From Chitinophagales bacterium (GTDB lineage: Bacteria > Bacteroidota > Bacteroidia > Chitinophagales > LD1), in assembly GCA_025057415.1 (NCBI GenBank), contig JANWXI010000004.1:1-59196 (forward strand): DNA of 59,196 nt, given 5' to 3'. How positions within the stretch are numbered: position 1 is the stretch's first letter; each line of letters opens with the position of its first letter. The notes under the pieces are model-generated. The model was not told the DNA's origin. It made no database searches and saw only the letters and a list, made by a program, of their open reading frames with translations. Positions 11-59,196 of the stretch are shown one piece after another. The position numbers were made by a program, and so were the translations under genes.

Positions 11-170
11 GGTGAGGGATGCGGAGGGCGCGAGCGCAGCGAAGCGGCCACGCCCGCACCGTTGAAAAACAAACAACGCGCGGGCGCGGCGGGAGCGACA
101 GCGTACCCCGTAGCCAGCCCGACCCCGCTGCTGCGCGCAGCCCCGCGGAGCGCAGCAGCGGGGGCACCCC
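11..170 (+). repeat. ~160-bp structured dispersed repeat, copy 1 (orientation GGTGAGGGATGC...GGGGCACCCC)
   Basis: Near-identical to 13047-13208 and 51841-52002. Perfect 14-bp stem CCCCGCTGCTGCGC/GCGCAGCAGCGGGG at 123-163. Confidence 0.95.
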
Positions 171-228
171 ATAATATAAAACAATTTTTAATGTATTGCC
201 CGTTTCGTTTTGTGCGTATCGTTCATTT

Positions 229-1413
229 TTACAAGCGTATCGTTTTGCCATAGGCAACCTGGCGGTAAACATCCGCGCTGGGGCGCTTGCGGCGTTCCTT
301 TGTTTCAATGTCTGTTTCGTACAGGCCGAAGCGGTACGTAGGTCCCAGGTTCCACTCAAAGTTGTCAAATGTGCTCCACCAAAAATACCCCCGTATGTCC
401 ACTCCGCTCTGCATGCACGCATGCACAATACGCAGGTACTCTTTCATGGCGCTGATGCGGAAGTTGTCATCACTTGTGCATACGCCGCTTTCGGTAATGA
501 TTATCGGCAGGCGGTATTTTTTCCAGTAGCGGTGAATGCACTCCGCCATTCCTTGCGGGTAGTATTCCCACATGTCATCGTGGGGTTTGTTCAGTTTTTT
601 GATTTTGTCGGGAGTATCAATGTACGTTATGGGATGAGGGTCGTGTGAAATTTTTGCGTAGTAACTCATTCCAAAAAAATCTAACGCTCCGGCAAATTGT
701 TGCAGGCAAAAGTCCATAAACCACCAGTCCGAAATGCGAGCCGGTAAAAGACCGGCCAGGTTCTCTGCGCTGAAGATTACAGCATTATGACTGATGCCAA
801 CCGGAATATGCGGATGTTCGTTTTTAAGCTCTGTGTAAGCCAGATGGTGGGCTTTGCCCAGGTTTCTGATAACGCGGAAAGCTCTTCGGATGCTCCTTTG
901 CTGTGGTGGAAACAACCCCGTAATCCATCCGTTGCTAGCATACACGTTTGGTTCGTTAAAAGTATTCCAGAAGCGCACGTATTTGCCAAACCGTTGCGAT
1001 ACTTTTCTGGCAAAGTCAACCCATAATGCCACGTTCTCTTCCTTCTCCCACCCGCCTTTTGCAAGAAACCAGTTTGGATTGTGAAAGTGGTGCAGCACCA
1101 GCATTATTTGTACGCCTTTTGCGCTGAGTAATTCCAAAAATCGCTCGTATTCGTTAGCTGTTTCTTCGTGTAATGGGGCAAGCGGGGCGCGTTGCAGTTT
1201 GCTCCACAGAAAACCCATGCGGTAATACGGAGCGCAGTAGGCAATTATGTCGGCATCCTCCTCGCGGTGCAACTCATGGTCGCAGGTGCGGTTAAAAATG
1301 TGCCCGTCTTTTGATGTAAAGTTTACCCACTCATGTTCAAAAGCGGTTTCAATCTGTGCTGCCGCTGTAGAAGTTCCAAACACAAAGTCGGCCGGAAAAT
1401 GAAGTTCGGTCAT
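229..1413 (-). CDS. Glycoside hydrolase family 1 (beta-glucosidase-like)
   Basis: N-terminal FPADFVFGTSTAAAQIE, TFNEP acid/base motif, ITESG nucleophile motif, DNFEW...RFGL. Confidence 0.93.
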   Translation of the reverse strand: MTELHFPADFVFGTSTAAAQIETAFEHEWVNFTSKDGHIFNRTCDHELHREEDADIIAYCAPYYRMGFLWSKLQRAPLAPLHEETANEYERFLELLSAKGVQIMLVLHHFHNPNWFLAKGGWEKEENVALWVDFARKVSQRFGKYVRFWNTFNEPNVYASNGWITGLFPPQQRSIRRAFRVIRNLGKAHHLAYTELKNEHPHIPVGISHNAVIFSAENLAGLLPARISDWWFMDFCLQQFAGALDFFGMSYYAKISHDPHPITYIDTPDKIKKLNKPHDDMWEYYPQGMAECIHRYWKKYRLPIIITESGVCTSDDNFRISAMKEYLRIVHACMQSGVDIRGYFWWSTFDNFEWNLGPTYRFGLYETDIETKERRKRPSADVYRQVAYGKTIRL

Positions 1414-1613
1414 GTTGCCTGAGTGCTGTAAATATTGTGATTAAACACAAACGCCGTAAATAGAAAATAGAAATGACAAATCTGAAAATATAACTGCATG
1501 GTTGTGCGCATTTTTTATCTGGTAACAGTTTCTAAATAATGAAAATACGATGCCTTAACCGTATGGGTCAGCGAGTTAATTTTTTGCAATAAATTTTTGG
1601 TTTTTACTCAAAT

Positions 1614-2768
1614 ATGTACTTGTTTTACATCAGACCCACTAATACCCCTCCCGTGCGTCCAGAAGATACATGGTTGCTGTACGGATGTTATGGCTATACA
1701 GGAGAGTTGATTGCAAGGCACGCCGTAGAGTGTGGCATGCGTCCTACTTTGGCGGGGCGCGATGCAAACCGCGTGGCAAAACTTGCAGGGGAGTTAAATT
1801 TGCCCTACCTCGTTTTTCCGTTAAATGATGCCGATGCAATAGCCGAGCGCATAGCGGGTTTCAAATGTGTATTGCATTGTGCCGGCCCGTTTATTCACAC
1901 TGCACCGCCTATGCTCCGGGCTTGCCTCAAAAGCAAAGTGCACTACCTTGATATAACCGGAGAGTACCAGATATTTGAAGACGTGTTTGCGCTGGATAAA
2001 CAAGCCCGCGATGCGGGCATTATGCTCCTGCCCGGTGTGGGCTTTGATGTGGTTCCTTCAGATTGTCTGGCAGCTCACCTCAAAGATGCTCTTCCGTCAG
2101 CGCTGATGCTGGAGTTGGTAATCATGAGCTTGGGAGGTGGCATTTCGCGCGGTACAGCGCTCACCATTGTTGAAAACCTCGGCATGGGTACCGTCATCCG
2201 CCGGCGCGGTAAACTCCGCACCGTGGAGCAAGGCGAAATAACCCGTGCTATTGAATACAATAAAAAGTCCTATAATGCCGTGGCCATCACCTGGGGCGAT
2301 GTATCCACTGCCTATCGCTCCACATCCATTCCCAATATCACAGTTTACAGCGTACTGCCTCCGCGCGTCATACGCACATTAAAACTTAGCAACTTTATCA
2401 ATTTTGTCCTTCGTTCGGCATGGTTCAAAAAGCTCCTCCGCACTCGCATTACTTCGCGCCCGCCCGGCCCCGATGCCAACAAGCGCCAAAGCGCCCGCTC
2501 AGCCATTTGGGGCGAGGTATCTAACAACCTCGGCATCACCAAACAAATGCTGCTCACCCTGCCCGAAGGTTACACCCTCACTTACCTCACAGCCGTTGCC
2601 ATCGTAAACGAAGTCCTCAAAGGCAACTTCATAACCGGTGCGCAAACCCCCTCGCTGGTTTACGGCAAAGATTTCATCCTCCGCTTCAAAGGCGTACAAT
2701 TAGAAGACCTCTCACAAAACTTCCAAAAACCCCTCACAAGCGCAAAAGCTGTTTCGCGCTCTTCATAA
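1614..2768 (+). CDS. Saccharopine dehydrogenase-like NAD(P)-dependent oxidoreductase
   Basis: LYGCYGYTG Rossmann motif, LAGR, HCAGPF, HYLDITGE, GFDVVPSD. Start codon uncertain. Confidence 0.85.
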   Translation: MYLFYIRPTNTPPVRPEDTWLLYGCYGYTGELIARHAVECGMRPTLAGRDANRVAKLAGELNLPYLVFPLNDADAIAERIAGFKCVLHCAGPFIHTAPPMLRACLKSKVHYLDITGEYQIFEDVFALDKQARDAGIMLLPGVGFDVVPSDCLAAHLKDALPSALMLELVIMSLGGGISRGTALTIVENLGMGTVIRRRGKLRTVEQGEITRAIEYNKKSYNAVAITWGDVSTAYRSTSIPNITVYSVLPPRVIRTLKLSNFINFVLRSAWFKKLLRTRITSRPPGPDANKRQSARSAIWGEVSNNLGITKQMLLTLPEGYTLTYLTAVAIVNEVLKGNFITGAQTPSLVYGKDFILRFKGVQLEDLSQNFQKPLTSAKAVSRSS

Positions 2769-2796
2769 ATTACATTTTTTTACAATATAGTTCTTT

Positions 2797-2959
2797 GGGG
2801 GTGCCCCCTGCTGCGTTGCGCTCGTACCTCGCGCAGGCAGCAGGGGTCGGGCTTGCTACGGGGTGCGCTGTCGCTCCCGCCGCGCCCGCACTTTGGTTGT
2901 TTTTCAACGGTGCGGGCGCGGCCGCTTCGCTGCGCTCGCGCCCTACGCATCCCTCACCC
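2797..2959 (-). repeat. Structured dispersed repeat, copy 2
   Basis: Reverse-complement match to copy 1 (GGGGGTGCCCCC...CATCCCTCACCC), 28 bp after the stop codon at 2768. Confidence 0.95.
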
Positions 2960-3255
2960 GGCTGGCGCACCCAGGGTACACACCTGTCTTCGCATCACTT
3001 CACACGCTACACAACACATTCTTCATTTACCTGTTTGATTATCGATTTAACAATTCATCTCCACATTTACGCATCGTTCAGTACCGGTCAGGCGCAATGT
3101 GCCACCTGTCCGGTACCCTTTTGATCACATATCTACTTTATACCCATTGTAAATCATCCTCTAATCTCACCCTTATGTCACACCACTTACCACGCATCTC
3201 AGGCGGGTTAGGCGCCTAATACACACACTTCTAAAACAAATAATGAAAAGGAGTT

Positions 3256-3285
3256 TTTGTTTTCTGCCATTAAAAACTACTTTTG
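3256..3285 (+). promoter_or_regulatory. Bacteroidota sigma-A promoter of rpsL operon (-33 TTTG / -7 TACTTTTG)
   Basis: TTTG 3256-3259, 18-bp spacer, TAnnTTTG 3278-3285, 22 bp before the rpsL ATG. Confidence 0.7.
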
Positions 3286-3307
3286 CCGTCCCAAAAAACA
3301 AAAGTGG

Positions 3308-3709
3308 ATGCCTACTATTCAGCAATTAGTGCGTAAATCGCGCGAAATCATACGGGCAAAATCCAAGAGCCGCGCTCTGGATGCCTGCCCCCAAAAGCGG
3401 GGCGTTTGTACGCGCGTTTACACCACTACGCCCAAGAAACCCAACTCTGCATTGCGCAAAGTAGCGAAGGTGCGTTTAACCAATCAGGTGGAGGTAATCG
3501 CCTACATCCCGGGCGAGGGTCACAACTTGCAGGAACACTCCATCGTACTCATTCGCGGCGGTCGGGTAAAAGACCTCCCGGGTGTGCGTTACCACATTGT
3601 GCGTGGTTCGCTCGACACCGCCGGTGTAGAAAATCGCAAAAAAAGCCGTTCCAAGTACGGCACCAAACGCCCGAAAGCGGGTGCTGCTGCCGCTCCTTCT
3701 AAAAAATAA
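3308..3709 (+). CDS. rpsL: 30S ribosomal protein S12
   Basis: [10 protein letters not shown]...[11 protein letters not shown]...[15 protein letters not shown]. True start is ATG 3308, not the ORF-track start 3257. Confidence 0.99.
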
Positions 3710-3738
3710 TCACCACGAAAAATACCACATAATCATAC

Positions 3739-4206
3739 ATGAGAAAGAAAAGAGCTCCAAAACGTTACATACAGCCCGACCCCAAATTCAATGATGTGGA
3801 CGTTGCCAAGTTCGTTAACCGCCTCATGTGGGAGGGTAAAAAGTCCGTGGCTTACAAAATATTTTACGGAGCACTCGACCTCGTACACGAGCGCACTAAA
3901 GAAGACCCCCTGGAGGTTTGGCGCAAAGCTGTGCTAAATGTATCACCCTCTGTAGAGGTTAAATCAAGGCGCATCGGTGGGGCAAACTTTCAGATACCCG
4001 TGGAGGTACGCCCTGAACGCAAGCAGGCGCTGGCCATGAAATGGCTCATTCAGTACAGCCGCGAGCGCAACGGCAAATCCATGGCCGATAAACTTGCCTC
4101 CGAAATCATTGCCGCCTCCAAAGGCGAAGGAGCTGCCTTTAAGAAAAAAGAAGACACCCACCGCATGGCCGAAGCCAACAAGGCATTCGCTCACTTTAAG
4201 TTTTAA
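3739..4206 (+). CDS. rpsG: 30S ribosomal protein S7
   Basis: [27 protein letters not shown]. Confidence 0.99.
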
Positions 4207-4259
4207 TTCTATATAAACCAATCATAAAAGAGGAACTGGTTCTATACAGTTGAACGAAA

Positions 4260-6371
4260 ATGGGAAAAGACCTCAGCTACACGAGAAACATCGGCATTGC
4301 CGCGCATATTGACGCCGGTAAAACCACCACTACCGAGCGGATACTTTACTACACCGGTGTGAACTACAAAATCGGTGAGGTGCACGATGGCGCAGCCACC
4401 ATGGACTGGATGGAGCAGGAGCAGGAGAGGGGCATCACCATTACCTCTGCCGCCACCCGATGTCAATGGACCTGGCAAGGAAAAAAGTACGATATAAATA
4501 TAATCGACACTCCCGGCCACGTGGACTTTACCGTTGAAGTAAACCGCTCTCTCCGGGTATTGGATGGTCTCGTGTTTCTCTTCTCAGCCGTTGATGGTGT
4601 AGAGCCCCAGTCCGAAACAAACTGGCGCCTGGCCGATAACTATGGTGTTCCGCGCCTGGGCTTTGTAAATAAAATGGACCGCCAGGGCGCTGACTATTTT
4701 AATGTAGTTAAGCAGGTAGAGACCATGCTCGGCTCCAATCCCCTGATAATGCAGGTTCCCATCGGTAGCGAGGATAATTTTAAGGGTGTATTTGACCTGG
4801 TAACCAACCAGGCCATCATATGGAATGAAGAAGATTTGGGCATGACCTACAGAGTAGTTGAGTGTCCTGATGATATACAGGAGGATGTAAAAAAATACCG
4901 CGAGCAGCTACTTGAAAAAGTTGCCGAGTTTGATGATAAACTGATGGAGAAATTCTTCTCAGACCCCAACTCCATCACTCCCGATGAAATTCGCTCAGCT
5001 ATTCGGCAGGCCGTAATCGCACAAAAACTCGTGCCCATGTTTTGCGGTTCATCTTTCAAAAACAAAGGTGTGCAGGCCGTGCTGGATGCCGTATGTGCCT
5101 TGCTTCCTTCCCCTCAAGACAAAAAAGAAGTAAAAGGCACCAACCCCGAAAATGGCGAAATTATTACCCGCAAACCCGATACTGACGAGCCCTTCACTGC
5201 ATTGGCATTCAAAATAGCCACCGACCCCTTTGTAGGCCGCCTGGCTTATTTCCGCGTTTACTCCGGAAGTTTAGAGGCAGGTTCTTATGTATTAAACACA
5301 CGCACAGGCAAAAAAGAGCGCATTTCGCGCCTCTTTCAAATGCATGCCAATAAGCAAAACCCCATTGAGCGCGTAGAGGCAGGTGACATAGCAGCTGCAG
5401 TAGGTTTCAAAGACATTCGCACCGGAGATACGCTTTGTGATGAAAAACACCCCATCGTGCTCGAAAGCATGAAATTCCCCGAGCCGGTTATATCACTAGC
5501 CATAGAACCCAAAGCCCAAAAGGACATGGACAAACTGGGCATGAGCTTGGCGAAACTTGCCGAAGAAGATCCTACTTTTCGCGTCAGTTTCGATGAACAA
5601 ACCGGCCAAACTATCATTTCGGGCATGGGTGAGTTGCATCTGGAAATAATCATTGACCGCCTACGCAGAGAGTTTAAGGTAGAGTGCAACCAGGGCGCTC
5701 CGCAGGTTAACTATAAAGAGCGCCTCACAACCACCATCGAGCACCGTGAACTTTATAAAAAACAAACCGGTGGTCGGGGTAAATATGCCGAAATTAAAAT
5801 TGAAATTGGCCCTGCTGACGAAGGTGTATCTGGCCTGCAGTTTATTAATGACATTTTCGGTGGAGCCATACCCAAAGAATTTATCCCTGCCGTAGAAAAG
5901 GGTTTCAGAGAAGCTATGAAAACCGGAGTGCTGGCTGGTTATGAAATGGACAATCTGAAAGTACGTCTCTTTGACGGCTCATACCACGAAGTTGACTCTG
6001 ACTCCCTCTCCTTTGAGCTTTGTGCCAAACTCGCCTTCCGTAACGCAGCTAAACTTGCCAAGCCCATTTTGTTGGAGCCAATCATGAAAGTTGAAGTAAT
6101 CACCCCCGAAGAAAATACCGGAGATGTAGTGGGTGACCTCAACCGCCGCCGCGGTATTCTTGAAGGTATGGAAGCCCGCCAAAACGCGCAAGTTATAAGA
6201 GCTAAAGTACCCCTTAGCGAAATGTTTGGCTACGTTACTCAGTTGCGTACCCTCACTTCGGGCCGCGCTACCTCCACTATGGAGTTCCACAGCTATCAGC
6301 CAGCCCCCGAAAACGTGGCATCTGTTGTAATAGCCAAAAATTCTGGTAAACTTAAACCCGTTGAAGAATAA
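4260..6371 (+). CDS. fusA: Elongation factor G
   Basis: [27 protein letters not shown]; 703 aa. Confidence 0.99.
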
Positions 6372-6407
6372 TCCAAACTTTTTCAAAACCCAAATAACGT
6401 TCTTTCT

Positions 6408-6713
6408 ATGAGCCAGCGCATACGCATCAAACTGAAAAGCTACGACCACAATCTCGTGGACAAAAGCGCAGAGAAAATTGTCAAAACCGTAAAAAGCACC
6501 GGTGCTGTAGTCAGCGGGCCTGTGCCTTTGCCCACCCGTAAAAAAATTTTTACGGTCAATCGCTGCCCCCATGTGAATAACAACAGCAAGGAACAATTCC
6601 AACTCTGCACCTATAAGCGTTTACTGGATATTTATTCTTCAACTTCCAAAACCATCGATGCGTTGATGAAACTGGAATTACCCAGCGGTGTAGAGGTAGA
6701 AATTAAAGCGTAA
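6408..6713 (+). CDS. rpsJ: 30S ribosomal protein S10
   Basis: [29 protein letters not shown]. Confidence 0.98.
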
Positions 6714-6717
6714 GTTT

Positions 6718-6915
6718 ATGAAGAAGATTACAACACTCCTCGCGCTTTTAGCTTTCACTTTTGCCGGTATAGCTGCTGACCAGAAATGCGGTAAATACAA
6801 CGGTCGTCAACTCTACTTAGGCGAAAAAGGCGGCTGCTACTACCGCGCTAAAGGCAAAGACGGTAAAATGGAGAAGGTTTACGTAGAACGCAACCTTTGT
6901 AAAAATTGTAAATAA
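6718..6915 (+). CDS. Small putatively secreted basic Cys-containing protein (65 aa; resembles the G-x-[RK]-GG-C-YY basic adaptor-like motif)
   Basis: Signal-peptide-like MKKITTLLALLAFTFAGIAA. Mature part has 4 Cys and LYLGEKGGCYY...KVYVERNLC. Fills the rpsJ-rplC gap, starting 4 bp after the rpsJ stop. Confidence 0.75.
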   Translation: MKKITTLLALLAFTFAGIAADQKCGKYNGRQLYLGEKGGCYYRAKGKDGKMEKVYVERNLCKNCK

Positions 6916-6969
6916 CTATATTTTTTATGTACCCGCCCCCTAAGGCGGAGACCTCTAAAAACAAAAACT

Positions 6970-12977: not shown

Positions 12978-13046
12978 GAAGAGTAGAATTGTGACAAGAG
13001 ACAGTATTGGTCAAATGACCTTACGCCCTTCTGCTCCTCTTCAATC

Positions 13047-13208
13047 GGGTGAGGGATGCGTAGGGCGCGAGCGCAGCGAAGCGGCCGCGCCCGCACCATT
13101 GAAAAGACAAGCAATGCGCGGGCGCGGCGGGAGCGAAAGCGTACCCCGTAGCCAGCCCGACCCCGCTGCTGCGCGTAGCTCTGCGGAGCGCAGCAGCGGG
13201 GGCACCCC
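13047..13208 (+). repeat. Structured dispersed repeat, copy 3
   Basis: GGGTGAGGGATGCGTAGGGCGCG...GGGGGCACCCC, in a divergent intergenic region. Confidence 0.95.
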
Positions 13209-13371
13209 ATCATAATAATGATTTAAATTTTTATAGTCGTTTAGTTATGTTATTTTATCGGAGTGTATTTTGCGTAAGCGATATAACCCGATTAATGGCG
13301 TACATGGAATTCTTTCGGGGTGTTTATGCGCAAGTTTCAATCCTTCTATTTTAGCGCGCAATCGTAGAACT

Positions 13372-24153: not shown

Positions 24154-24262
24154 TACCGCCCCGCCTGCAGGTCAGCATGTATGTCTTTACTGCATTCACC
24201 CGATGACGCACTGCAACTCTCCCTTCAAAATATATAATTTACTTATAATTTGTTTTTTATTT

Positions 24263-24414
24263 GGGGGTGCCCCCGCTGCCTGGCGATGCAAGGCAGCGGG
24301 GTCGGGCTTGCTACGGGGTGCGCTTCGCTCCCGCCACGCCCGTAGTATTATTGATATTTCAAAGGTACGGGCGTGGCCGCTTCGCTGCACTCGCGCCCTC
24401 CGCATCCCTCACCC
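24263..24414 (-). repeat. Structured dispersed repeat, copy 4 (variant)
   Basis: GGGGGTGCCCCCGCTGCC...CGCATCCCTCACCC; central stem CCACGCCCGTA/TACGGGCGTGG. Confidence 0.93.
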
Positions 24415-25249
24415 GAATGAAATAGCACACTTACCCCGTATATCGTGAGCCATGTTACTTCGGGCAGTGATGCCAACTTTTGTCACAATACTTCAGGTGG
24501 TATGTATTTTTGATATAGATTGCATGATGCTTCACTCCGTTTTAAATCATAACAGCCAGAGTTGATAAATTTTTTACCGGTAAGTTGTTTTTGGTGATAC
24601 CACTACGAAACATACCCATTAAAAAAATATAATATGTTTTAATAGCCGAAAAACTGATTTTTGCTTTGGGCGTATGGGTGCCTGCAAGTTTATTATCCAA
24701 AAACAATAGCACATACCCGGATATATAGATTAATGTTTGCTTTCTATGCACAACTGGTTGCCAAACCCGATAATGAACAGTGCATTTGCGAAATTGGTTA
24801 CAAGCTGTAAGCTGCATCAATATTAACCAACATTTAAGACCGCCGTTTATACAGTGGTCTTATTTTTATTTAGAGGTGGCAAAAAATGTTGTTGTAAACT
24901 CAGGTGTGTTGCTAAAATAGATAAAGCAAAAATCTCTGTTGTATTTACATACATTACATAAATATCATTTTTATGACCACAACATATTATTTTAAGTTTA
25001 GCGATGGTTGGTAGGTGCCTATTAAAATTTCTAAGTACCACATAAAACTCAACATACCGCCAGACACAATCCTCGACTGTACCATCAAATAAACGTGTAT
25101 GTCATTCCTGCTGGCAGATAATCACTTCAAAACACTCTACACAAAACTCCTCTGACTGCGACTATCTAATTTCTTCCTTATTTTAATACTCTATGACACG
25201 ACTTACCACAAGAACATTCAATTATTATTTTCGCCTGCTTTAAAACATA

Positions 25250-35930: not shown

Positions 35931-36073
35931 GCGGAATGTTTTATGCGTTACGAAGGAAAAGATTTTTTCTTGAAACTTCAAACAGTTGTTTGAATTTATT
36001 GTTTGCGGCTGTCAGCGCCGCGCCGGCAAGTTGGAGCTGAGGTAGGTTAAATCATCAAGTAAAGCGCTCCATC

Positions 36074-36244
36074 GGGTGAGGGATGCGGAGGGCGCGAACC
36101 CCGCCCGCTGCAGGAGGGCGGGGTGAAGCGGCCACGCCCGTACCCTTGAATAATTAAAAACTTACGGGCGGGGCGGGAGCGAAGCGCACCCCGTAGCAAG
36201 CCCGACCCCGCTGCCTTGCAACGCTTGGCAGCGGGGGCACCCCC
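36074..36244 (+). repeat. Structured dispersed repeat, copy 5 (carries an extra 9-bp hairpin)
   Basis: GGGTGAGGGATGCGGAGGGCGCGA...GGGGGCACCCCC; ACCCCGCCC/GGGCGGGGT at 36098-36124. Confidence 0.93.
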
Positions 36245-36439
36245 TAATAAGAAAAAATGGTGAAGTGACTGGCAGGGTTGCGCGGAAAATGCCGGGGATA
36301 TTTCGTATATGGAGTTAGCAGCCGCAGCGGTGTGGGTTGAAAATATGTGGATGTTTACGTATCTGCCGGCGCAATTAAATAACAGATTAACTATTGCATA
36401 ACAAATACTATGATACATTTGCGGGATAAAGGAATAGCT

Positions 36440-38200
36440 ATGATAAGGATGCTTTACACACTCCTGCTCGTGCTGAGTACAGCGGCCGGGCATGCGCAAT
36501 GTACAGATTTGTTTTTTTCGGAATATGTAGAGGGCTCCAGTAACAACAAGGCGCTCGAGATTTACAATGCATCGGGCAGCACGATAGACCTGACGGGTTA
36601 CCGGGTGCAGTTGTATTCAAACGGGAACACCAACCCTACATCAACGTTTAATCTGAGTGGTAATTTAGCAGCGGGGGCTACGTATGTAATCTGCAACAGT
36701 TCGGCTGCAGCATATATTAAAAGTTTAGCTGATACGACTTCGGGTGTTACGAATTTTAATGGCAATGATGCTATTGTGTTGCTTAAAGGCAACGACACGC
36801 TGGATGTGATAGGGATAGTGGGTAACGACCCAGGCAGCGGTGGTTGGGCTGTTGGCACAGGCAGTACCACTGATAAAACACTGGTGCGTTCCGACACGGT
36901 GAAGCTCGGTACGAAAGATTGGAGTATAGGCGCTACGCAATGGTTGGTGTTGCCGAAAGATACCATTATGCTGAAGCAACATACCATGCAACCATGCCCG
37001 CCTTCTGTGGCTTTTGGTTTAACGAGCGATGCCGTAAACGAGAGCGCCGGCACATACTCCATATCCATTACGCTGAATACACCGGCCACTATCTCTTACA
37101 CCGTAGATGTGAAGCTGACAGGCGGTACCGGTGACGCGTCAGACATAGGCATGTTTACCGGAGCGCAGGTAACTTTTGGACCCGGGGATGTTACCAAAAC
37201 CGTTTCGATAAACATTACAGATGACAATATACAGGAACCTGCAGAGACCTTGATTTTCACGCTGCAGAATCCGTCATCGGGTTTACTGATAGGAGCTAAC
37301 GCTACGTTTACCCTTACGATTGCCGCCAGTGATGTGCCGGTGGTGAAGTACAATATTTCACAAATTACCGGGCTGGATGCCGATTTTAAACCTGACTCAC
37401 TGGGCGCTAAAGTAGTGGTAACGGGTACGGTTATCGGTATAGATTACCGCGCCAATGGGTTGGAATTTTTTATTCATGACGGAACCGATGGCATACAGGT
37501 GTTTTCGCCAAGCAATACGTTTGGCTACACGGTAAACGAGGGGGATTCGGTGCAGGTGGAAGGAGAGGTGAGTTTCTTTAACGGAGTTACGCAGATAGCG
37601 TTTTTGGATACTGTGTTTAAAGTAGGTACGGGCGCAGTGCCTGCACCCGCGGTAGTGCAGGATTTAGACGAAAACACCGAAGCGGAGCTAATACGGCTGA
37701 ACTATGTTAATTTGGTGAATCCTTCACAATGGACCGGCTCAGGCGCCAATGGGTTTAACTGCAGCATCACAGACGGGCAAAAAACCTGGACTTTGCGCAT
37801 TGATGAACAGTGTGCGTTGTATTCGCAGCCGGCGCCTCAGGGCAAGTTTCATGTCATCGGCATCGGTAGTCAATTTGATGCTACTTCGCCTTATGATGGC
37901 GGCTACCAGATTTTGCCCCGTTATGTAACGGACATCATCCTGGTAACAGGCACGGATGACATGGAAAAACTTCAGGTGAGTGTTTTCCCCAACCCCGGTC
38001 GCGACAAATTTTATCTGTTTGCTGCCACAGCCGGTGAAACGCAAGTGCTGGTTACGGACATAACCGGCAAAACAATTCATAGGAGTACTTTCTACGGAGC
38101 TCAACACACGTTGGCGCTGGAGAATGCGGCGCCCGGGTGGTATATGGTTGAATTGTTACAAAACGGCAAATACTACCGCACGAAATTGCTCGTGCAGTAA
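36440..38200 (+). CDS. T9SS type-A cargo with lamin-tail-like, Calx-beta-like and OB-fold-like domains
   Basis: Signal peptide; DLFFSEYVEGSSNNKALEIYN (ExeM-type N-domain); GDSVQVEG; YQILPR; C-terminal VFPNP...PGWYMV...KLLVQ. Confidence 0.85.
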   Translation: MIRMLYTLLLVLSTAAGHAQCTDLFFSEYVEGSSNNKALEIYNASGSTIDLTGYRVQLYSNGNTNPTSTFNLSGNLAAGATYVICNSSAAAYIKSLADTTSGVTNFNGNDAIVLLKGNDTLDVIGIVGNDPGSGGWAVGTGSTTDKTLVRSDTVKLGTKDWSIGATQWLVLPKDTIMLKQHTMQPCPPSVAFGLTSDAVNESAGTYSISITLNTPATISYTVDVKLTGGTGDASDIGMFTGAQVTFGPGDVTKTVSINITDDNIQEPAETLIFTLQNPSSGLLIGANATFTLTIAASDVPVVKYNISQITGLDADFKPDSLGAKVVVTGTVIGIDYRANGLEFFIHDGTDGIQVFSPSNTFGYTVNEGDSVQVEGEVSFFNGVTQIAFLDTVFKVGTGAVPAPAVVQDLDENTEAELIRLNYVNLVNPSQWTGSGANGFNCSITDGQKTWTLRIDEQCALYSQPAPQGKFHVIGIGSQFDATSPYDGGYQILPRYVTDIILVTGTDDMEKLQVSVFPNPGRDKFYLFAATAGETQVLVTDITGKTIHRSTFYGAQHTLALENAAPGWYMVELLQNGKYYRTKLLVQ

Positions 38201-43555: not shown

Positions 43556-43670
43556 CATTTTGTTGCCCGCTATAGGCGGGTTCTTCAGGGGAACCATGTG
43601 CAAATCATGGGCTGTGGCGCAACTGTGAGCCCGCCTGCGGCGGGTAAGCCAGATTACCTGACAAAATGTG
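43556..43670 (+). ncRNA. Cobalamin (B12) riboswitch
   Basis: AGGGGAA-CCATG-TGCAAAT-CATGG T-loop stem, GCTGT-GCGCAACTGTGA, B12 box AAGCCAGATTACCTG; P1-like CATTTTGT/ACAAAATG. Confidence 0.85.
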
Positions 43671-43883
43671 CTGTTGCAATGCCTTCGCTCTAAAGGCTAA
43701 GCACAACCATACCCCTTTTCTTACAGGGGCTGTTTTGTTGTTGCTGCCTTTGAGCGGCAAATACAACAAAACAGAGTAAATGAACCATCACATATTTACT
43801 TGCTTTTTGCTCTCCGGTTACCCCCACGTTACGCGGAGCGGTTTCCTGCCGGAGTATTGCTTTTCAACCCAATATCCTGCGCC

Positions 43884-44282
43884 ATGAAACATGAAATAAA
43901 AACATGCCCGCGTTGCGGAAATGTATTTGAATGTAAAGTGGGCGATATCGCCAACTGTCAGTGCAACATACCGTTGAGCGACAGAACAAAGAAATTTTTG
44001 GCTGGCACTTACTACGATTGCCTTTGCGCTTCATGCCTGTTACACTTTGAAAAACTCAACGCGATTGCTTCTAAACAAACGTTTCCTGTGCAGAGCGAAC
44101 TGCTGATTGAAGGACTACACTACTACAGGGAGAACGGTTGTGTGGTCTTTACCGAACTATATCATTTGCTCAGGGGGTTTTGTTGCAACAGTGGATGCAG
44201 ACATTGTGTATATGGATACAAAAACCGCTCTACATCCAACTCTCCCGCTATAACCCTAACAAATACAAATATAAAAAACTGA
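43884..44282 (+). CDS. Cysteine-rich CWC-like domain fused to DUF5522-like domain
   Basis: CPRCGNVFEC...CQC...CLCASCL, then YYRENG..VFTE.YHLLRGFCCNSGCRHCVYG. Start set at MKHEIK. Confidence 0.8.
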   Translation: MKHEIKTCPRCGNVFECKVGDIANCQCNIPLSDRTKKFLAGTYYDCLCASCLLHFEKLNAIASKQTFPVQSELLIEGLHYYRENGCVVFTELYHLLRGFCCNSGCRHCVYGYKNRSTSNSPAITLTNTNIKN

Positions 44283-50562: not shown

Positions 50563-50722
50563 CTGTGAACTGTAAATTTTTTAACACACCCCTTCCTGTG
50601 AGGCCAAAACCGGCGAGAACGTGCATAAAATAATACGGACATAATCTCAACAACACTGTGCCAAATCCATACATATACAACACGATAAAACTCCTACAAT
50701 AGATAACATTTTATCGTTTATC

Positions 50723-50863
50723 GGGGGGTGCCCCCCGCAGCAGCGCGCTCGTACCTCGCGCGCTGCTGCGGGGGGCGGGCGTGCTACCGGGTGCGCGTTC
50801 GCTCCCCTGCTCCACACCGTTTCGCACCGCTCCCGGTGGTCGCGCCCTCCGCATCCCTCACCC
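50723..50863 (-). repeat. Structured dispersed repeat, copy 6 (shorter variant lacking the central long hairpin)
   Basis: GGGGGGTGCCCCCC...CGCGCCCTCCGCATCCCTCACCC; 17-bp perfect stem 50731-50775. Confidence 0.9.
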
Positions 50864-51159
50864 GGAAAAAAAAGCGGTTCTTAACGGACAATCGTTTCAG
50901 AAAATCTTAGCCCGTTTTACAGGTGCATAACTGTTGAAACACAAATGTTCATGCAAAATAACGGCTACCTGATTAATTGGCATAACATTGCTAAGTACCT
51001 TTTATTTGGCGCGGATACCCCGGTAGCGCACACACGCTTAACTGCACAAGTCGGAGCGATGTTTTATGAATGATGTTATACGCTGCATCATTCCTCAATC
51101 CACATATGGCTCATAAATTGAGTAATGAGCGGGGGATGATTTGCGATGGTATTTGGCTC

Positions 51160-51690: not shown

Positions 51691-51840
51691 GAATGTTAAG
51701 GTGAGGCGGGTGTGGTTATTTTCTGTGCGCGCCCGGTGGCATCCCCTTGTCATATTATATTTATTCTTTATACGAATCATTGCCCTGCCAACTCACCTGT
51801 GCTGCTTTGCGCAACACAAGGGCCGCCGGAGCGATTGCTT

Positions 51841-52002
51841 GGGTGAGGGATGCGTAGGGCGCGAGCGCAGCGAAGCGGCCGCGCCTGTACCGTTGAAAAA
51901 CAAACAACGCACGGGCGCGGCGGGAGCGGCAGCGTACCCCGCAGCAAGCCCGACCCCGCTGCTGCGCGTAGCTACGCGAAGCGCAACAGCGGGGGCACCC
52001 CC
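51841..52002 (+). repeat. Structured dispersed repeat, copy 7
   Basis: Near-identical to copies 1 and 3. Confidence 0.95.
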
Positions 52003-52117
52003 AATAATTAAAAAATAAACATATATAAAATATTGTGCATTTATTAACGCGAAACCCGCAATGCGTTTTGCGCTGCGGGGTGAGCGGGGCGCGGGTTGTT
52101 GAAAACTTTTGGGCGAT

Positions 52118-54217: not shown

Positions 54218-54299
54218 AAAACGGCTGCAGATAAATGGAGTATGGATATGTATTAAATAAAATAAATATATAAAATTCCATGCAATCCGCTCCGGCTTT

Positions 54300-54863
54300 T
54301 TAGCGGTTAAAGCGGCTCATGGCGCGCTCTATTCCTTCCAGTACAAAACTCTGGATGGCTTGCACGGCAATGTGTATTTTTTCGTCTAACTGAGCTGCTT
54401 CTTCGCTCGTCCACTTACCGAGTACGTAGTCCACCTGGCGTCCTTTCGGGTAATGGTTTCCGATGCCGAAGCGCAGGCGCGGATATTGCTGATGCCCGAG
54501 GCAGGCATCAATATCTTTTAGGCCGTTGTGCCCGCCATCGCTGCCTTTGCCCCGCAGCCGGATTACGCCAAATGGCAATGCCACATCATCCACTACCACC
54601 AGTAAATTTTCGGGCGGTAGCTGCAATTGCTGCAGCCAGTATTTTACGGCTTTGCCCGATAGGTTCATGTAGGTGGTGGGTTTAATAATGTATATTCCTT
54701 TTCCTTTTAACCGGAGCGTAGCCACCTGGGCGTAGCGGTCGCTGATAAACGGAGCAGAGGCAGTGGTTGCCAGCGCATCCGCAATGCGAAAACCAACGTT
54801 GTGGCGCGTGTGGGTGTATTCGTCACCGATGTTGCCCAATCCGGCTATGAGGTAGTGGGTCAT
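54300..54863 (-). CDS. pth: Peptidyl-tRNA hydrolase
   Basis: GLGN.G..Y..TRHNVGF, KPTTYMNLSG, GGHNGL, RLRFGIG. Confidence 0.98.
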   Translation of the reverse strand: MTHYLIAGLGNIGDEYTHTRHNVGFRIADALATTASAPFISDRYAQVATLRLKGKGIYIIKPTTYMNLSGKAVKYWLQQLQLPPENLLVVVDDVALPFGVIRLRGKGSDGGHNGLKDIDACLGHQQYPRLRFGIGNHYPKGRQVDYVLGKWTSEEAAQLDEKIHIAVQAIQSFVLEGIERAMSRFNR

Positions 54864-54943
54864 GCAGGGCGGCTAAGGTAATCCGGATTTTGAGAATGAG
54901 CGCTACGTATAGGTAAAGTTTGTTTTATTTGCCGCTCGCCATC

Positions 54944-55600
54944 ATGGAATACATTCAGTTTTTTATTGATTTGTTGACCAACACCAAAGAGGTGTTGCTC
55001 GCGCTCTTTCAGCAATACGGTACGTACATATACGCCATACTCTTCCTCATCATATTTGTGGAAACCGGCCTGGTGATTTTTCCGCTTTTGCCGGGCGACT
55101 CGCTCCTGTTTACGGCAGGTTTACTGTGTGCGCAGCCCTCGGGTTTGGATATCTGGTTCCTCATCCCCTTGCTCATTTTCGCGGCAGTGCTGGGCGATAA
55201 CGTGAATTACTTCGTGGGCAAGTATTTCAGTGAAAAGGTGTTGAGTTGGAAAATAAACGGCAAACCCCTCGTAAAACAAGAATGGTTAGACAAAACACAC
55301 GAGTTTTTTGAAAAAAACGGAACCAAAACCATCATACTGGCGCGTTTTGTACCGATTGTGCGCACCGTCACTCCGTTTGTATCGGGCATCGGCAGGATGA
55401 ACTACCGGGTGTTTTTACCTTTCGACATACTGGGCGGTGTAATTTGGGTGGGCAGTATTACTACTATCGGGTACTTTTTGGGGCAAGTTCCCTTTGTGGA
55501 GAAACATCTCGAAAAATTCATTCTCGGCATTGTACTCCTATCGGTAATGCCGATTTTTTGGCAGGCGATAAAGCAGCGTTTAAACGCAAAAAACGCTTAA
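54944..55600 (+). CDS. DedA family membrane protein
   Basis: FVETGL..FPLLPGDSLLF.AG, LGDNVNY, ARFVPIVRT. Confidence 0.95.
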   Translation: MEYIQFFIDLLTNTKEVLLALFQQYGTYIYAILFLIIFVETGLVIFPLLPGDSLLFTAGLLCAQPSGLDIWFLIPLLIFAAVLGDNVNYFVGKYFSEKVLSWKINGKPLVKQEWLDKTHEFFEKNGTKTIILARFVPIVRTVTPFVSGIGRMNYRVFLPFDILGGVIWVGSITTIGYFLGQVPFVEKHLEKFILGIVLLSVMPIFWQAIKQRLNAKNA

Positions 55601-55873
55601 GCACCGTTGTAAAGAATACAAAAGAAAATTTACGGCTTCCTGAACATCTGATGTATCGTTAACTGGAGATGAGCACTCATAACTTTCAGGCGCTGTACCG
55701 ATGAAATTTTGCTGCAAGTCCTGTACATTAGTTATTTATTTCAACGCACAGAACGAAGGATAACATAACCGCAAAAATTCCATAAATCTGCATCGCATTG
55801 TATGTTGCACAATCCGAACATACTTTTACCTCTGCATAGCAACACAACCTAAAACCGCGCTAATTCTCACACC

Positions 55874-56299
55874 ATGGGCAAAAAGAAAATCATCATCATC
55901 AACGGGCCTAATCTTAATTTGTTGGGCAGGCGCGAGCCACACATTTACGGCAACATATCTTTTGATGATTTCTTTGAAGAGCTGAAGGATGTATATGCCG
56001 ATGAGGTACAGTTGAGCTACTTTCAATCAAATGTAGAAGGGGAAATCATCAACAAATTACAGGAAGTGGGTTTCAGTTTTGACGGTATATTGCTTAACGC
56101 CGGCGGTTACACACACACCTCGGTAGCCATTCGCGATGCGGTAGCAGCTATTAAAACGCCGGTGGTGGAAGTACACATAACCAACCCCTACGCCCGCGAG
56201 GAGTTTCGGCATGTGAGTTTACTGAGCGGGGTGTGCAAGGGCATAGTGGCGGGCTTCGGGCTTGAAAGTTACGTACTGGCGCTCGATAGTTTTTTGTAA
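55874..56299 (+). CDS. aroQ: Type II 3-dehydroquinate dehydratase
   Basis: INGPNLNLLGRREP.IYG, QSN.EG, NAGGYTHTS, EVHI.N..AREEFRH. Confidence 0.98.
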   Translation: MGKKKIIIINGPNLNLLGRREPHIYGNISFDDFFEELKDVYADEVQLSYFQSNVEGEIINKLQEVGFSFDGILLNAGGYTHTSVAIRDAVAAIKTPVVEVHITNPYAREEFRHVSLLSGVCKGIVAGFGLESYVLALDSFL

Positions 56300-56315
56300 G
56301 CCACCCTGAAACAGA

Positions 56316-56341
56316 AAGCCGCCTGGCAAAGCAGGCGGCTT
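56316..56341. terminator. Hairpin terminator between convergent aroQ and rplY
   Basis: AAGCCGCCTG-GCAAAG-CAGGCGGCTT. Confidence 0.65.
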
Positions 56342-56363
56342 GGTAAAGTAATGTAGAGTGCGA

Positions 56364-57002
56364 TTATTTCTTTTTCTCTTCGGGTTTCGCAGCAGCAGGA
56401 GCAGGGGCGGCAGGTGCAGCGGCAGCCGGAGCAGCGGCGGCCTCTTCTTTAGCGGCGCGCGGCACACTCACCCGGGCTATCGGATTAGCGCCCGATAACA
56501 GAAAAGTGAGGTTAGGATAAAATGCCTGCAAATCGCGCACGCGGCTGATGGCGCCCAGGTCCATGCCAGATACGTCAAACTCCAGATAACTCACCAGGTC
56601 TTTGGGCAGCGCTACCACCTGCAGGCGTCTTACTACCTGCTCCAGTTTACCCCCTGCCGAGGCGCCCTTGGGGGTGCCTTTCAGGCGCAGCGGAATGCTC
56701 ACCTTTACTTTTACATCTTCGCGCAGTTCCTGAAAATCAGCATGCAGCATGGTGTCTTTCACCGGCTCAAACTGCGTTTCTTTCAAAATAGCGCGGTGTA
56801 CCTGACCATTAAGATGAATTTCCGCCACCCGCAGTTCGGGCGTGTAAATCAGTTTGCGGAATTCGTGCAGCGGAGCGTAAAAGTTGTAATTCTTATCGCC
56901 CCCGTACAAATTGCAAGGAACGTTACCTGCCTTGCGCAGGGCACGCGTAGCCTTTTTGCCTAATTCGGTTCTTGGCGTGCCGTGAAGAATGGTTGTTTCC
57001 AT
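56364..57002 (-). CDS. rplY: 50S ribosomal protein L25 / Ctc
   Basis: GKKATRALR..G.VP.NLYG, HADF, C-terminal Ctc domain and Ala-rich tail. Confidence 0.96.
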   Translation of the reverse strand: METTILHGTPRTELGKKATRALRKAGNVPCNLYGGDKNYNFYAPLHEFRKLIYTPELRVAEIHLNGQVHRAILKETQFEPVKDTMLHADFQELREDVKVKVSIPLRLKGTPKGASAGGKLEQVVRRLQVVALPKDLVSYLEFDVSGMDLGAISRVRDLQAFYPNLTFLLSGANPIARVSVPRAAKEEAAAAPAAAAPAAPAPAAAKPEEKKK

Positions 57003-57050
57003 GATGTTGATGGGTTTTTATGAATAAAAAATTTTATATATAAAATAATT

Positions 57051-57995
57051 TTAAACCGATGGCGTAAGGAAAAGCGAGTTGATGCTTTTGTGTTCGTGCG
57101 TGTTGCGTATGGCCTGTGCAAACAGCTTGGCAACGCTAAGCACCTTAATCTTAGGCGAGTTTTTGGGCGGCAGGGTGTTGGTGACAATCAGCTCACTGAG
57201 TTGACTTTTCTCTACGTTTTCCACAGCTTTACCCGAAAGCACGGCGTGCGTACATATTGCCCGCACACTCCGGGCGCCTTTCTCCATCAGCAGGTTGGCA
57301 GCGCTGCAGAGTGTGCCGCCGGTGTCAATCATATCGTCACACAAAATTACGTTTTTGCCTTCCACGTTGCCGATAAGCGTCATTTCGGCAACTTCGTTCA
57401 CACGCTTGCGGTATTTGTCACATATTACCATGTCGGCATTAAAGTGCTGCGCATAGATGCGCGCGCGCTTCACAGAGCCCACGTCGGGCGAGGCAAAACA
57501 CAAATTGTCTAAGTTGAGTTTCTGAATGTACGGCAAGAAGATGGCAGAGCCGTTCAGGTGGTCCACCGGAATATCAAAAAAGCCCTGAATTTGCCCGGCA
57601 TGCAGGTCCATCGTCATCACGCGGTTAGCGCCCGCAGCGGTGAGCAGGTTAGCGATTAGCTTGGCTGCAATACCCACCCGGGGGCGGTCTTTGCGGTCCT
57701 GCCGGGCATACCCAAAATACGGAATAACTGCCGTAATGTAATCGGCCGATGCCCGTTTGGCTGCGTCAATCATCATGAGCAGCTCCATCAGATTATCGGT
57801 AGGAGCGGGCGTGCTTTGAATAATAAACACAAAGGCCCCGCGCACACTCTCTTTAATCTCGGGTTGAAATTCCCCATCGCTGAAACGAAGTACATCAATT
57901 TGAGCGAGCTGCTGCCCATAAATATCGGCAATGTCTTCGGCCAGGTATCGCGTCAATGTGCCTGTAAATAACTTAACATCGCTGGTGAGCAACAT
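57051..57995 (-). CDS. prs: Ribose-phosphate pyrophosphokinase
   Basis: FSDGE, PYFGYARQDRK, DLHAGQIQGFF, DDMIDTGGT. Start set at MLLTS because a TATATTTG promoter element lies at 58023-58016. Confidence 0.97.
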   Translation of the reverse strand: MLLTSDVKLFTGTLTRYLAEDIADIYGQQLAQIDVLRFSDGEFQPEIKESVRGAFVFIIQSTPAPTDNLMELLMMIDAAKRASADYITAVIPYFGYARQDRKDRPRVGIAAKLIANLLTAAGANRVMTMDLHAGQIQGFFDIPVDHLNGSAIFLPYIQKLNLDNLCFASPDVGSVKRARIYAQHFNADMVICDKYRKRVNEVAEMTLIGNVEGKNVILCDDMIDTGGTLCSAANLLMEKGARSVRAICTHAVLSGKAVENVEKSQLSELIVTNTLPPKNSPKIKVLSVAKLFAQAIRNTHEHKSINSLFLTPSV

Positions 57996-58118
57996 AGCCC
58001 GCAATTTTGGGGGCACAAATATAACCTTATTGTTGAGAACTAATACCCGATTTACAAACCTTTGTCACCTTACAACGCCCGCGATTTAATTTATTTGCCG
58101 CCTGCAACTTCACACCAC

Positions 58119-58997
58119 ATGCTATTACTGGACGGCAAAAAGCTATCCGAAGAGATAAAAGCCGAAATTAAAACTCAAGTAGAGAAACGCCTGCTTACCG
58201 GCAAAAGCGCCCCCCACCTGGCGGCTATACTGGTGGGCAACGATGGAGGCAGCTTAACTTACGTGGGGCACAAAGTAAAGGCGTGCGAGCAGGTAGGGTT
58301 TCGCTCCACATTGTTGCACTTTCAGGAAAACATCACTCAGGATGCGCTCCTGAAGGAAATTGAACGCCTCAATGCCGACAATACCGTGCACGGCTTCATC
58401 GTGCAACTCCCCCTGCCCGCTCACATCGATGCCACCCGCGTTTTGTTGCACATCCACCCTTCCAAAGATGTGGACGGTTTTCACCCCGTAAACGTGGGGC
58501 GCATCACATTGGGCATGCCCGGCTTCGTATCGGCAACTCCTCTCGGCATCACCAGGTTGCTTGAGCGCTACGCCATTCAAACCGCCGGCAAACACTGCGT
58601 CATTATCGGCCGCAGCAACATCGTAGGTCGCCCCCTAAGCATCCTGCTGAGCAGCCAGAGCGCCACCGGCAATGCCACCGTCACCCTTTGCCACTCCCGC
58701 ACCCAAAACCTCGCATCCATCACCCGCCAGGCCGACATCCTCATCGCGGCCCTCGGCAAACCCGAGTTCCTCACTGCCAACATGGTAAAAGAAGGCGCCG
58801 TAGTCATTGACGTAGGCACTACCCGCGTACCCGACCCAAGCGCCAAAACCGGCTGGCGCCTCAAAGGAGACGTAAAATTTGACGAGGTAGCCCCAAAATG
58901 CTCAGCCATCACGCCCGTTCCCGGCGGCGTAGGTCCCATGACCGTCGTATCGCTCCTGCTCAACACCCTGCAGGCAGCGCAGCAAGCCGACCCTTAA
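58119..58997 (+). CDS. folD: Bifunctional methylene-THF dehydrogenase/cyclohydrolase
   Basis: LLDGK, VQLPLP, KDVDGFHP.N, GRSNIVGRP, TPVPGGVGPMT. Confidence 0.98.
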   Translation: MLLLDGKKLSEEIKAEIKTQVEKRLLTGKSAPHLAAILVGNDGGSLTYVGHKVKACEQVGFRSTLLHFQENITQDALLKEIERLNADNTVHGFIVQLPLPAHIDATRVLLHIHPSKDVDGFHPVNVGRITLGMPGFVSATPLGITRLLERYAIQTAGKHCVIIGRSNIVGRPLSILLSSQSATGNATVTLCHSRTQNLASITRQADILIAALGKPEFLTANMVKEGAVVIDVGTTRVPDPSAKTGWRLKGDVKFDEVAPKCSAITPVPGGVGPMTVVSLLLNTLQAAQQADP

Positions 58998-59073
58998 CTC
59001 GCCACCGGTTGCGGTCGCATACCCGCGTACGAAATACATTAACAAAAAATCTTATATGTATTTTCATTTTTCA

Positions 59074-59196
59074 GGGGGTGCCCCCGGTGCGCCCCCCGCG
59101 TAACAAACCGGGCGCACAGGGGGCGGGCGGGCGAAGGGGTAACCAGTCGCTACCCCCCCCCCCCGGAGATTTTTTTTTTTATAAAAGGTACGGGCG
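59074..59196 (-). repeat. Structured dispersed repeat, copy 8 (divergent, truncated by window end)
   Basis: GGGGGTGCCCCC start, hairpin GTGCGCCC/GGGCGCAC, GGGGGCGGGC, and ends in AAAGGTACGGGCG as in copy 4. Homopolymer runs suggest low-quality end sequence. Confidence 0.75.

Follow-up and report, generated by a model that had tools for sequence, protein, structure and literature searches.

What makes eight copies of a repeat, scattered between genes over 59,196 nucleotides, strictly alternate in direction? The window, meaning the whole stretch of DNA analysed, is the entire contig C141 in the draft genome of one hot-spring bacterium, and its copies run + - + - + - + -. The alternation had been noticed in a preliminary description made from the sequence alone, and repeat-family comparison and nhmmer bear it out: 7 of 7 neighbouring pairs are inverted. 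The copies are as follows.

Copy 1: 4..197, + strand, at the contig start, hairpin-2 type A, nhmmer E = 8.7e-55, repeat families D1-D5 and I1
Copy 2: 2776..2965, - strand, hairpin-2 type B, nhmmer E = 1.9e-49
Copy 3: 13036..13234, + strand, nhmmer E = 1.8e-56, single-stranded DNA fold z = -3.8
Copy 4: 24239..24428, - strand, short hairpin-2 type S, nhmmer E = 1.8e-52, fold z = -4.4
Copy 5: 36065..36268, + strand, type S, with a 20-nt insertion past the 5' motif (alignment), nhmmer E = 1.9e-47
Copy 6: 50698..50876, - strand, type B, lacking hairpin 1 (alignment), nhmmer E = 4.2e-32
Copy 7: 51831..52025, + strand, type A, nhmmer E = 1.2e-53
Copy 8: 59049..59196, - strand, divergent, nhmmer E = 5.6e-30 over model positions 59-204

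Start-to-start spacings are 2.8, 10.3, 11.2, 11.8, 14.6, 1.1 and 7.2 kb, and the earlier figures of 10, 11, 12 and 15 kb for copies 2-6 agree with the measured starts. Copy 2 lies 8 nt past the stop of the called gene at 1614-2768. By Pfam matches, the intergenic gap that holds copy 3 is flanked by two divergent genes, one of the subtilase type and the other for a carboxyltransferase, and copy 5 lies between clpS on one side and a secreted-protein gene on the other. Copies 6 and 7 stand head-to-head around a gene whose translation is a 155-aa lipoprotein-like product; considered as a possible mobiliser, this gene was set aside, being lipoprotein-like and having no Pfam match.

A profile search finds 291 copies of the element genome-wide. 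The unit is a GC-rich, non-coding, multi-hairpin, intergenic sequence of about 190 nt that opens at its 5' end with the conserved motif GGGTGAGGGATGCG... and closes at its 3' end with GGGGGCACCCC, followed by AT-rich DNA. Two hairpins are enclosed by a long-range closing helix, in which compensatory changes are seen, and complementarity of the termini themselves extends to only about 5 nt (GGGTG/CACCC in the folds). At about 190 nt the unit is asymmetric, and is not a short palindromic REP in a tight inverted doublet; of 128 neighbour pairs, only 6 are less than 2 kb apart. The family is both high-copy and extragenic (17 of 291 copies overlap a called gene by more than 30 nt). No recurrent target-site duplication was seen by eye in 60 printed flank pairs from the 184 anchored copies. 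Rfam 15, including its Bacteroidota hairpin motifs, gave no covariance-model match at the gathering score; the four matches at E up to 1 all fall far below threshold, and one of them, at chance level, overlaps a copy. A search of multi-copy intergenic segments after masking found no second repeat family in the genome to act as a control: all 91 remaining segments group with one another, and for 71% of them a copy is no more than 400 nt away.

A draft assembly can itself orient repeats. Contigs of this genome break inside the 5' half of the element, so the orientation of an end copy is set by assembly: left contig ends carry 41 copies on the + strand vs 8 on the - strand, and right ends 38 on the - strand vs 10 on the + strand. 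In the window, copy 1 owes its orientation to such a break, as does copy 8, which the contig end cuts at model position 59. Because both end copies are oriented by this bias, only six orientations are free rather than eight, and the chance of 1/128 first attached to the alternation becomes 1/64, although the alternation itself stands. The window also has the most copies among the 71 contigs with a usable pair, which makes it a post hoc choice. The practical lesson is that strong orientation bias at contig ends of such genomes can mimic alternation.

Genome-wide, among adjacent copies on the same contig, with pairs left out when both copies are contig-terminal, 97 of 128 are inverted (p = 4e-9), a proportion of 76:24 and not the roughly 50:50 that the preliminary description had named as counting against its proposal. 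Inverted pairs still number 60 of 82 once copies within 100 nt of a contig end are left out, and 47 of 68 once that margin is widened to 1 kb; 51 contigs lean inverted and 9 lean direct. The convergent and divergent arrangements occur equally often (33 vs 27). The remaining 24% of neighbours break the inversion rule.

We give a small chance to the possibility that an artefact of the draft assembly, or some local feature left out of the models, produces this result. The contig-end bias is strong, all of the orientation evidence comes from one draft genome at about 9x coverage (93.85% complete), and the window was picked for its striking look. Against this, the excess survives the exclusion of pairs with both copies terminal (and is still 47 of 68 beyond 1 kb from the ends), and independent detection with the 5' motif alone returns 52 inverted of 74. 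Fold-back would yield identical inverted copies, whereas the neighbours agree at only about 77% and usually differ in type, and chimeric joins would be expected to randomise orientation, not to alternate it. One public hot-spring metagenome run (X1, about 9x here) contains the window; its contigs are interrupted where copies 6 and 7 lie. The sole joint at copies in those contigs has 23 letters on its shorter side and was read as a repeat artefact.

The strand of the flanking genes, a second possible explanation raised at the outset, does not account for the excess either. Gene strand predicts 64.0 +/- 5.4 inverted pairs of 128, and none of 20,000 simulation runs reached the observed 97 (maximum 87). 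Where the flanking genes lie in tandem, 33 copies have the sense orientation and 52 the antisense one, and a search for subfamily-specific gene orientation found none. Copies occur in either direction relative to the genes between which they sit, and behave like selfish REP/MITE-like DNA.

The bias varies with the distance between neighbours. Inverted pairs outnumber direct ones 27 to 2 at separations of 2-5 kb and 20 to 7 at 5-8 kb; the counts are then 18 and 4 (8-12 kb), 19 and 10 (12-20 kb), and 9 and 6 for pairs more than 20 kb apart. The bias fades with a logistic slope of -0.065 per kb (permutation p = 0.01), direct pairs are farther apart than inverted ones (median 12.5 vs 7.2 kb, p = 0.018), the split between neighbours falls to parity by about 20 kb, and the inverted excess taken over all lags has vanished by 16-30 kb. 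Of three curves tried, one describing a purge of direct neighbours fits best (AIC 140.7), ahead of a constant rate (143.7) and of strict alternation with random loss (146.0).

An effect strongest at short range, with 27 of 29 pairs inverted at 2-5 kb, is also what might be expected if new copies are made or placed inverted beside an existing one. This could happen through intramolecular replicative transposition, where the survivor would be an inverted duplicate flanking an inverted segment, or through an enzyme that reads the orientation of the neighbour. The total of 2-5 kb pairs, which is not reduced, agrees with such a bias at insertion, as does the position of five of the six internal window copies at synteny breaks against the congener G008 (match tables, by eye). 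These are copies 2, 3, 5, 6 and 7; copy 4 is instead a clean insertion in a block collinear with G008 C11:219183-227741. That comparison, at about 75% nucleotide identity, is with a genome too diverged to reveal inversions, is confounded by operon boundaries, and shows about 16 breaks in about 52 gaps. Breaks and repeats may both just favour inter-operon gaps.

The sequences of the copies speak against insertion bias. Inverted offspring should resemble their donor, but identity is 0.773 for adjacent pairs and 0.775 for random pairs; neighbours no more alike than random pairs argue against local inverted copying. Close inverted neighbours are, if anything, less alike in hairpin 2 (0.66 vs 0.74, p = 0.002), sharing its type in only 3 of 24 cases where 37% would be expected. 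The longest exact match is no different for neighbours, direct ones included, than for random pairs. No transposase has been linked to the element, and overall we consider insertion bias improbable.

Because the bias fades with distance and neighbours are not parent and offspring, the reading that fits best is one of survivorship, in which direct neighbours are lost and inverted ones are kept; we hold it at a little short of an even chance. New copies would land in random orientation. A same-direction neighbour within about 15 kb would then make a direct repeat with it, and processing of both copies together would delete the whole interval; candidate routes are homologous recombination, annealing of single strands after breakage, and an enzyme of the element's own that pairs ends from the two copies. 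Cells with the deletion would die, or the pair would collapse to a single copy, while opposed neighbours would at most invert the interval and so persist. A purge of direct neighbours had been one of two proposals in the preliminary description. It now has the best fit to the data. The orientation bias, its fading with distance and its independence of gene strand and of neighbour similarity are shown, while the purge and the enzyme behind it are inferred.

A scarcity of pairs under 2 kb is expected under survivorship, and was found: 5 are seen where random placement in intergenic gaps predicts 14-19. Other distance bins are as expected under that placement, including 2-5 kb (29 pairs seen vs 30-32 expected, i.e. 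not halved), a comparison blurred by the fixed copy number of the null. Several observations weigh on the other side. In the contigs of the one public run that contains the window, which are broken at copies, no deletion or inversion event was seen. The longest exact match among present-day copies has a median of only 23 nt, and on that basis homologous recombination is expected to be infrequent today; a purge would have acted on younger copies, or via an element-specific enzyme, of which none was found. RecA-type recombination is not known to weaken over a 10-kb scale, which also counts against it. The direct neighbours that survive show no greater divergence than random pairs, 12 of 24 sharing a hairpin type and their longest exact matches being no different, and the 2-5 kb total is not reduced, each of which sits uneasily with a purge. 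Hidden decayed copies are not in excess between direct neighbours (7 weak matches in 394 kb, vs 14 in 897 kb between inverted ones).

The other proposal had been that the copies work as convergent and divergent pairs that split the chromosome into domains of about 10 kb. In a wider form of this reading, opposed pairs would serve for barriers, loading or looping, and selection would keep neighbours opposed. It is true that the rule acts between neighbours independently of genes, and that the element is strongly structured, its closing helix carrying compensatory changes. However, the even spacing of about 10 kb taken as a sign of such domains is simply the mean density (3.22 Mb / 291 copies = 11 kb), and placement is random-like except for the shortage below 2 kb. 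Convergent pairs are as frequent as divergent ones, 24% of neighbours go against the rule, and if 290 sites had an architectural role, it would be a peculiarity of a single species, this density being found in one genome of 67. Partition into domains thus finds no support, and we regard functional opposition of any kind as very improbable.

Relatives of the element occur in 10 of the 67 genomes of the family searched, and high density is found only here; with at most 55 candidates scored per genome, none of the other carriers has more than 48 among the matches listed. The exact motif is in none of 39 congeners, and metagenome contig scans with two motifs gave no match. In a genome of another genus that has the same motif (G031), 39 copies lie on 30 of about 250 contigs, chosen for holding the 5' motif, and the valid adjacent pairs, 4 inverted and 4 direct (one of these a split copy), are too few to judge. 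A further genome with a variant of the element (G131) has 15 inverted and 13 direct pairs by hand count among the matches listed, and 5:5 under 20 kb among the same matches, at a density of one copy per about 70 kb that is uninformative at short range.

In this genome a copy is not independent of others that lie 2-15 kb away. If direct neighbours are indeed lost, the distance curve measures the reach of repeat-mediated deletion in a wild organism, and the loss would explain how about 290 copies are tolerated in one genome. More broadly, and here we think a positive outcome unlikely, direct-neighbour exclusion might be a general rule for dense, oriented repeat families of bacterial chromosomes. 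In a family that has reached a density of about one copy per 10 kb, same-direction neighbours out to about 15 kb would be removed by a process sensitive to orientation, perhaps a strand-specific enzyme that belongs to the element and joins ends from two copies, and opposed copies would be left to tile the chromosome. Were this so, the repeat map would serve as a natural gauge of how far, and at what rate, repeats mediate deletion in an uncultured bacterium. Should insertion machinery or a chromosomal function be the cause, the pattern would point to an undescribed orientation-sensing process. In the literature searched, with subscription journals and supplements outside it, we found no account of dispersed chromosomal repeats that alternate over long distances.

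The nearest known systems each share part of the picture. REP, BIME and REPIN elements with their RAYT partners are likewise high-copy, intergenic, GC-rich, hairpin-forming and non-coding, of lineage-specific sequence, and of a type that is maintained throughout a bacterial family. A REPIN is described as a pair of REPs inverted relative to each other (PMC3337134). There, however, the unit is a 20-40-nt palindrome or tight doublet, and the inverted relation spans tens of bases; here the unit is asymmetric, about 190 nt long with several hairpins, and the relation spans copies 2-15 kb apart. MITEs and hairpin elements derived from IS200/IS605 are also short and non-autonomous, with structured ends, and lie between genes. 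MITEs derived from DDE transposons would show a target-site duplication and inverted repeats of at least about 10 bp at their termini; in this element only GGGTG and CACCC pair at the ends in the folds, and the printed flanks showed no recurrent duplication by eye. An IS200/IS605-type element would have subterminal hairpins but no inverted ends, a Y1 TnpA or TnpB as partner, and co-orientation with replication. Hairpins are present here, no intact TnpA and no TnpB was found, and neighbours alternate. No intact TnpA, TnpB or RAYT was found in the element's own genome (93.85% complete), and a PF01797 search of it gave one match at 20.8 bits (cut-off 23), a 54-aa open frame adjoining a partial copy on contig C116. 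This IS200-like remnant was considered as a partner, and no tie to the element was found.

The logic of survivorship has its closest parallel, by logic only, in the pdif sites and dif modules of Acinetobacter plasmids. These oriented recombination sites alternate in direction, and inversely oriented pdif sites around a module preclude its excision (PMC13141974). They are 28-bp XerC/XerD sites on small plasmids, with alternation forced by module structure, whereas about 290 chromosomal repeats of about 190 nt follow a rule that is statistical (76%). A survey of long repeats in bacterial genomes asks the same question, namely how the rearrangements that repeats permit shape their orientation. 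In about 79% of its 6,340 genomes, inverted repeat pairs are fewer than direct ones (bioRxiv 10.1101/2022.03.16.484558). The near neighbours described here show the opposite trend: a dense family inverted 3:1 overall, and 27:2 at 2-5 kb, runs against the surveyed deficit.

The eight copies of the repeat in the window, found with a search for repeats and with a sequence profile made from its members, alternate strictly in orientation, as the preliminary description had it, and the spacings quoted there are also correct:

4-197, + strand, repeat copy 1
2776-2965, - strand, repeat copy 2
13036-13234, + strand, repeat copy 3
24239-24428, - strand, repeat copy 4
36065-36268, + strand, repeat copy 5
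50698-50876, - strand, repeat copy 6
51831-52025, + strand, repeat copy 7
59049-59196, - strand, repeat copy 8

The window spans contig C141 from end to end, and both ends fall inside copies. The last 44 bases (59153-59196, within copy 8) contain long homopolymer runs of C and T, which look like sequence of low quality where the assembly breaks. At 43564-43710, upstream of an ORF at 43800-44282, the sequence weakly matches an AdoCbl riboswitch (31.1 bits, E = 0.08, with the gathering score at 50).

An iterated nhmmer search of the draft genome (196 contigs, 3.22 Mb, 93.85% complete) yields 291 non-overlapping copies; of the adjacent pairs sharing a contig, 106 are inverted and 32 direct before any correction. 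Assembly breaks fall in the 5' half of the element, with the 3' half retained on the contig, so + copies dominate left contig ends (41 against 8 -) and - copies right ends (38 against 10 +). Because this bias forces a "+ ... -" arrangement on pairs with both copies terminal (9 of 10 inverted), those ten were dropped; pairs with a single terminal copy still give a fair comparison, since the internal partner is unbiased. (The 3' part of a copy survives at about 70 contig ends, the matching 5' stub at no more than 27; it seems that assembly loses the element's very GC-rich 5' third.) Opposed neighbours extend well beyond the window: 97 of the remaining 128 pairs are inverted (p = 4e-9), as are 60 of 82 when each copy lies over 100 nt from a contig end, 47 of 68 when each lies over 1 kb away, and 52 of 74 when the 5' motif alone is used for detection. 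Inverted pairs predominate on 51 contigs and direct pairs on 9, with ties on 11. The alternation is real and genome-wide, partly inflated at contig ends; that some residual artefact lies behind it we consider quite unlikely.

Flanking genes do not explain the orientations. With our own gene calls (ORF and codon usage; 2,321 genes, 87% coding), gene-context simulation gives 64.0 +/- 5.4 inverted pairs of 128 and never more than 87 in 20,000 runs, against the 97 observed; the smaller set gives 40.8 +/- 4.5 of 82, against 60. No subfamily shows a gene-strand preference. A single draft genome supplies all of this evidence: two other carriers examined have too few close pairs, and metagenome scans found nothing.

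The effect is local. Ratios of inverted to direct pairs are 4:2 at 0-2 kb, 27:2 at 2-5 kb, 20:7 at 5-8 kb, 18:4 at 8-12 kb, 19:10 at 12-20 kb and 9:6 over 20 kb. Inversion declines with distance (logistic slope -0.065 per kb, permutation p = 0.01), median separation is 12.5 kb for direct and 7.2 kb for inverted pairs, and the excess over all lags vanishes by 16-30 kb. Second neighbours (34 direct, 18 inverted) match the prediction of a neighbour-level rule. The even spacing suggested by the window proves illusory: compared with copies placed at random in the gaps between genes on the same contigs, only pairs less than 2 kb apart depart from expectation, being scarce (5 seen, 14-19 expected), while those at 2-5 kb (29 seen, 30-32 expected) and in the remaining bins are near it. 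Among the very few tight pairs is a head-to-head doublet on another contig (C55:37246-37750), in which just 170 nt separate the two copies and a small extra GC hairpin lies between them.

The element is about 190 nt long, with GC far above the genome's 47%. A nearly invariant 5' motif, GGGTGAGGGATGCG..., is followed by hairpin 1, a conserved central block, hairpin 2 (a short form in 109 copies, two long forms in 89 and 44) and a 3' end, GGGGGCACCCC, that gives way to AT-rich DNA; in about 25-35 copies the 5' end is extended by some 300 nt. Single strands fold far better than shuffles (z = -3.8 and -4.4), and compensatory changes occur in the long-range helix that encloses hairpin 1, both within the family and on comparison of this genome with a relative. 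Rfam has no match. Only 17 of 291 copies overlap one of our called genes by more than 30 nt. Copies in tandem gene contexts are both sense (33) and antisense (52), and the 3' side adjoins gene starts (140 times) as well as stops (132), so this is not the behaviour of a cis-acting mRNA element. We read the element as selfish REP/MITE-like DNA, and a functional role for its oriented copies appears very unlikely.

Alternation could arise if new copies were placed inverted beside existing ones. Local inverted duplication, however, predicts alike neighbours, and adjacent copies are no more identical (0.773) than random pairs (0.775); such an insertion bias is unlikely. Close inverted pairs are in fact less alike in hairpin 2 (0.66 against 0.74, p = 0.002) and have the same hairpin type in 3 of 24 cases against an expected 37% (a post hoc comparison). 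No decayed copies are hidden between direct neighbours. The dissimilarity of neighbours and the lack of hidden copies favour removal of same-direction neighbours over creation of inverted ones. Such loss, proposed in the preliminary description, is the best-supported explanation, though a tentative one: neighbour dissimilarity speaks for it, and against a simple version by homologous recombination stand the short exact tracts between present copies (only 23 nt at median) and surviving direct pairs that are not especially diverged. A purge would accordingly go back to a time when a burst had produced near-identical copies, or would depend on an element-specific enzyme whose effect weakens with distance. 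A search of the genome for such an enzyme gave none: no TnpB turned up, and of IS200-like sequence there was just a broken fragment. The single public run, the likely source sample, shows no usable joints at copies at ~9x coverage. (Seven copies are automatically classed as having the long hairpin-2 loop in reverse complement, as if flipped in place; the label is doubtful for at least one, window copy 3.)

The exact 5' motif occurs in two of 401 genomes sampled in the order, this one and a MAG from a different genus of the same family (G031), and in none of 39 congeners. With a covariance model extended to a diverged variant, relatives appear in 10 of 67 genomes from the family and in 5 of 6 genera, with at most 48 matches in any other genome among the up to 55 candidates scored in each; the family has thus long had this type of element, and the ~290-copy expansion is peculiar to this genome. 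One stretch of 781 nt (C49:5539-6305 here; contig C139, 1-779, in G031) is 93% identical, against about 65-82% at other loci compared. It contains one repeat copy and, directed away from that copy, the beginning of a gene whose visible 158 aa are identical in both genomes and match nothing in Pfam or NCBIfam; both contigs stop at the same place. The stretch may be a recently exchanged segment carrying the repeat between genera. Against a congener at ~75% identity (G008), five of the six internal window copies lie at synteny breaks, a comparison confounded by operon boundaries, and one is a clean insertion. Copy 5 and an adjacent secreted-protein gene (36065-38200; LTD, Calx-beta and Por secretion-tail domains) stand between two blocks contiguous in G008, where the gene's counterpart is ~23 kb away.

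According to a survey covering 6,340 genomes, inverted long-repeat pairs are outnumbered by direct ones in ~79% (10.1101/2022.03.16.484558), so the inverted excess here runs contrary to that norm. The open-access literature searched describes no dispersed chromosomal repeat that alternates over long range. Among known systems, the closest alternation of oriented sites is that of the pdif/dif modules of Acinetobacter plasmids, a system in which inversely oriented sites preclude excision (PMC13141974).
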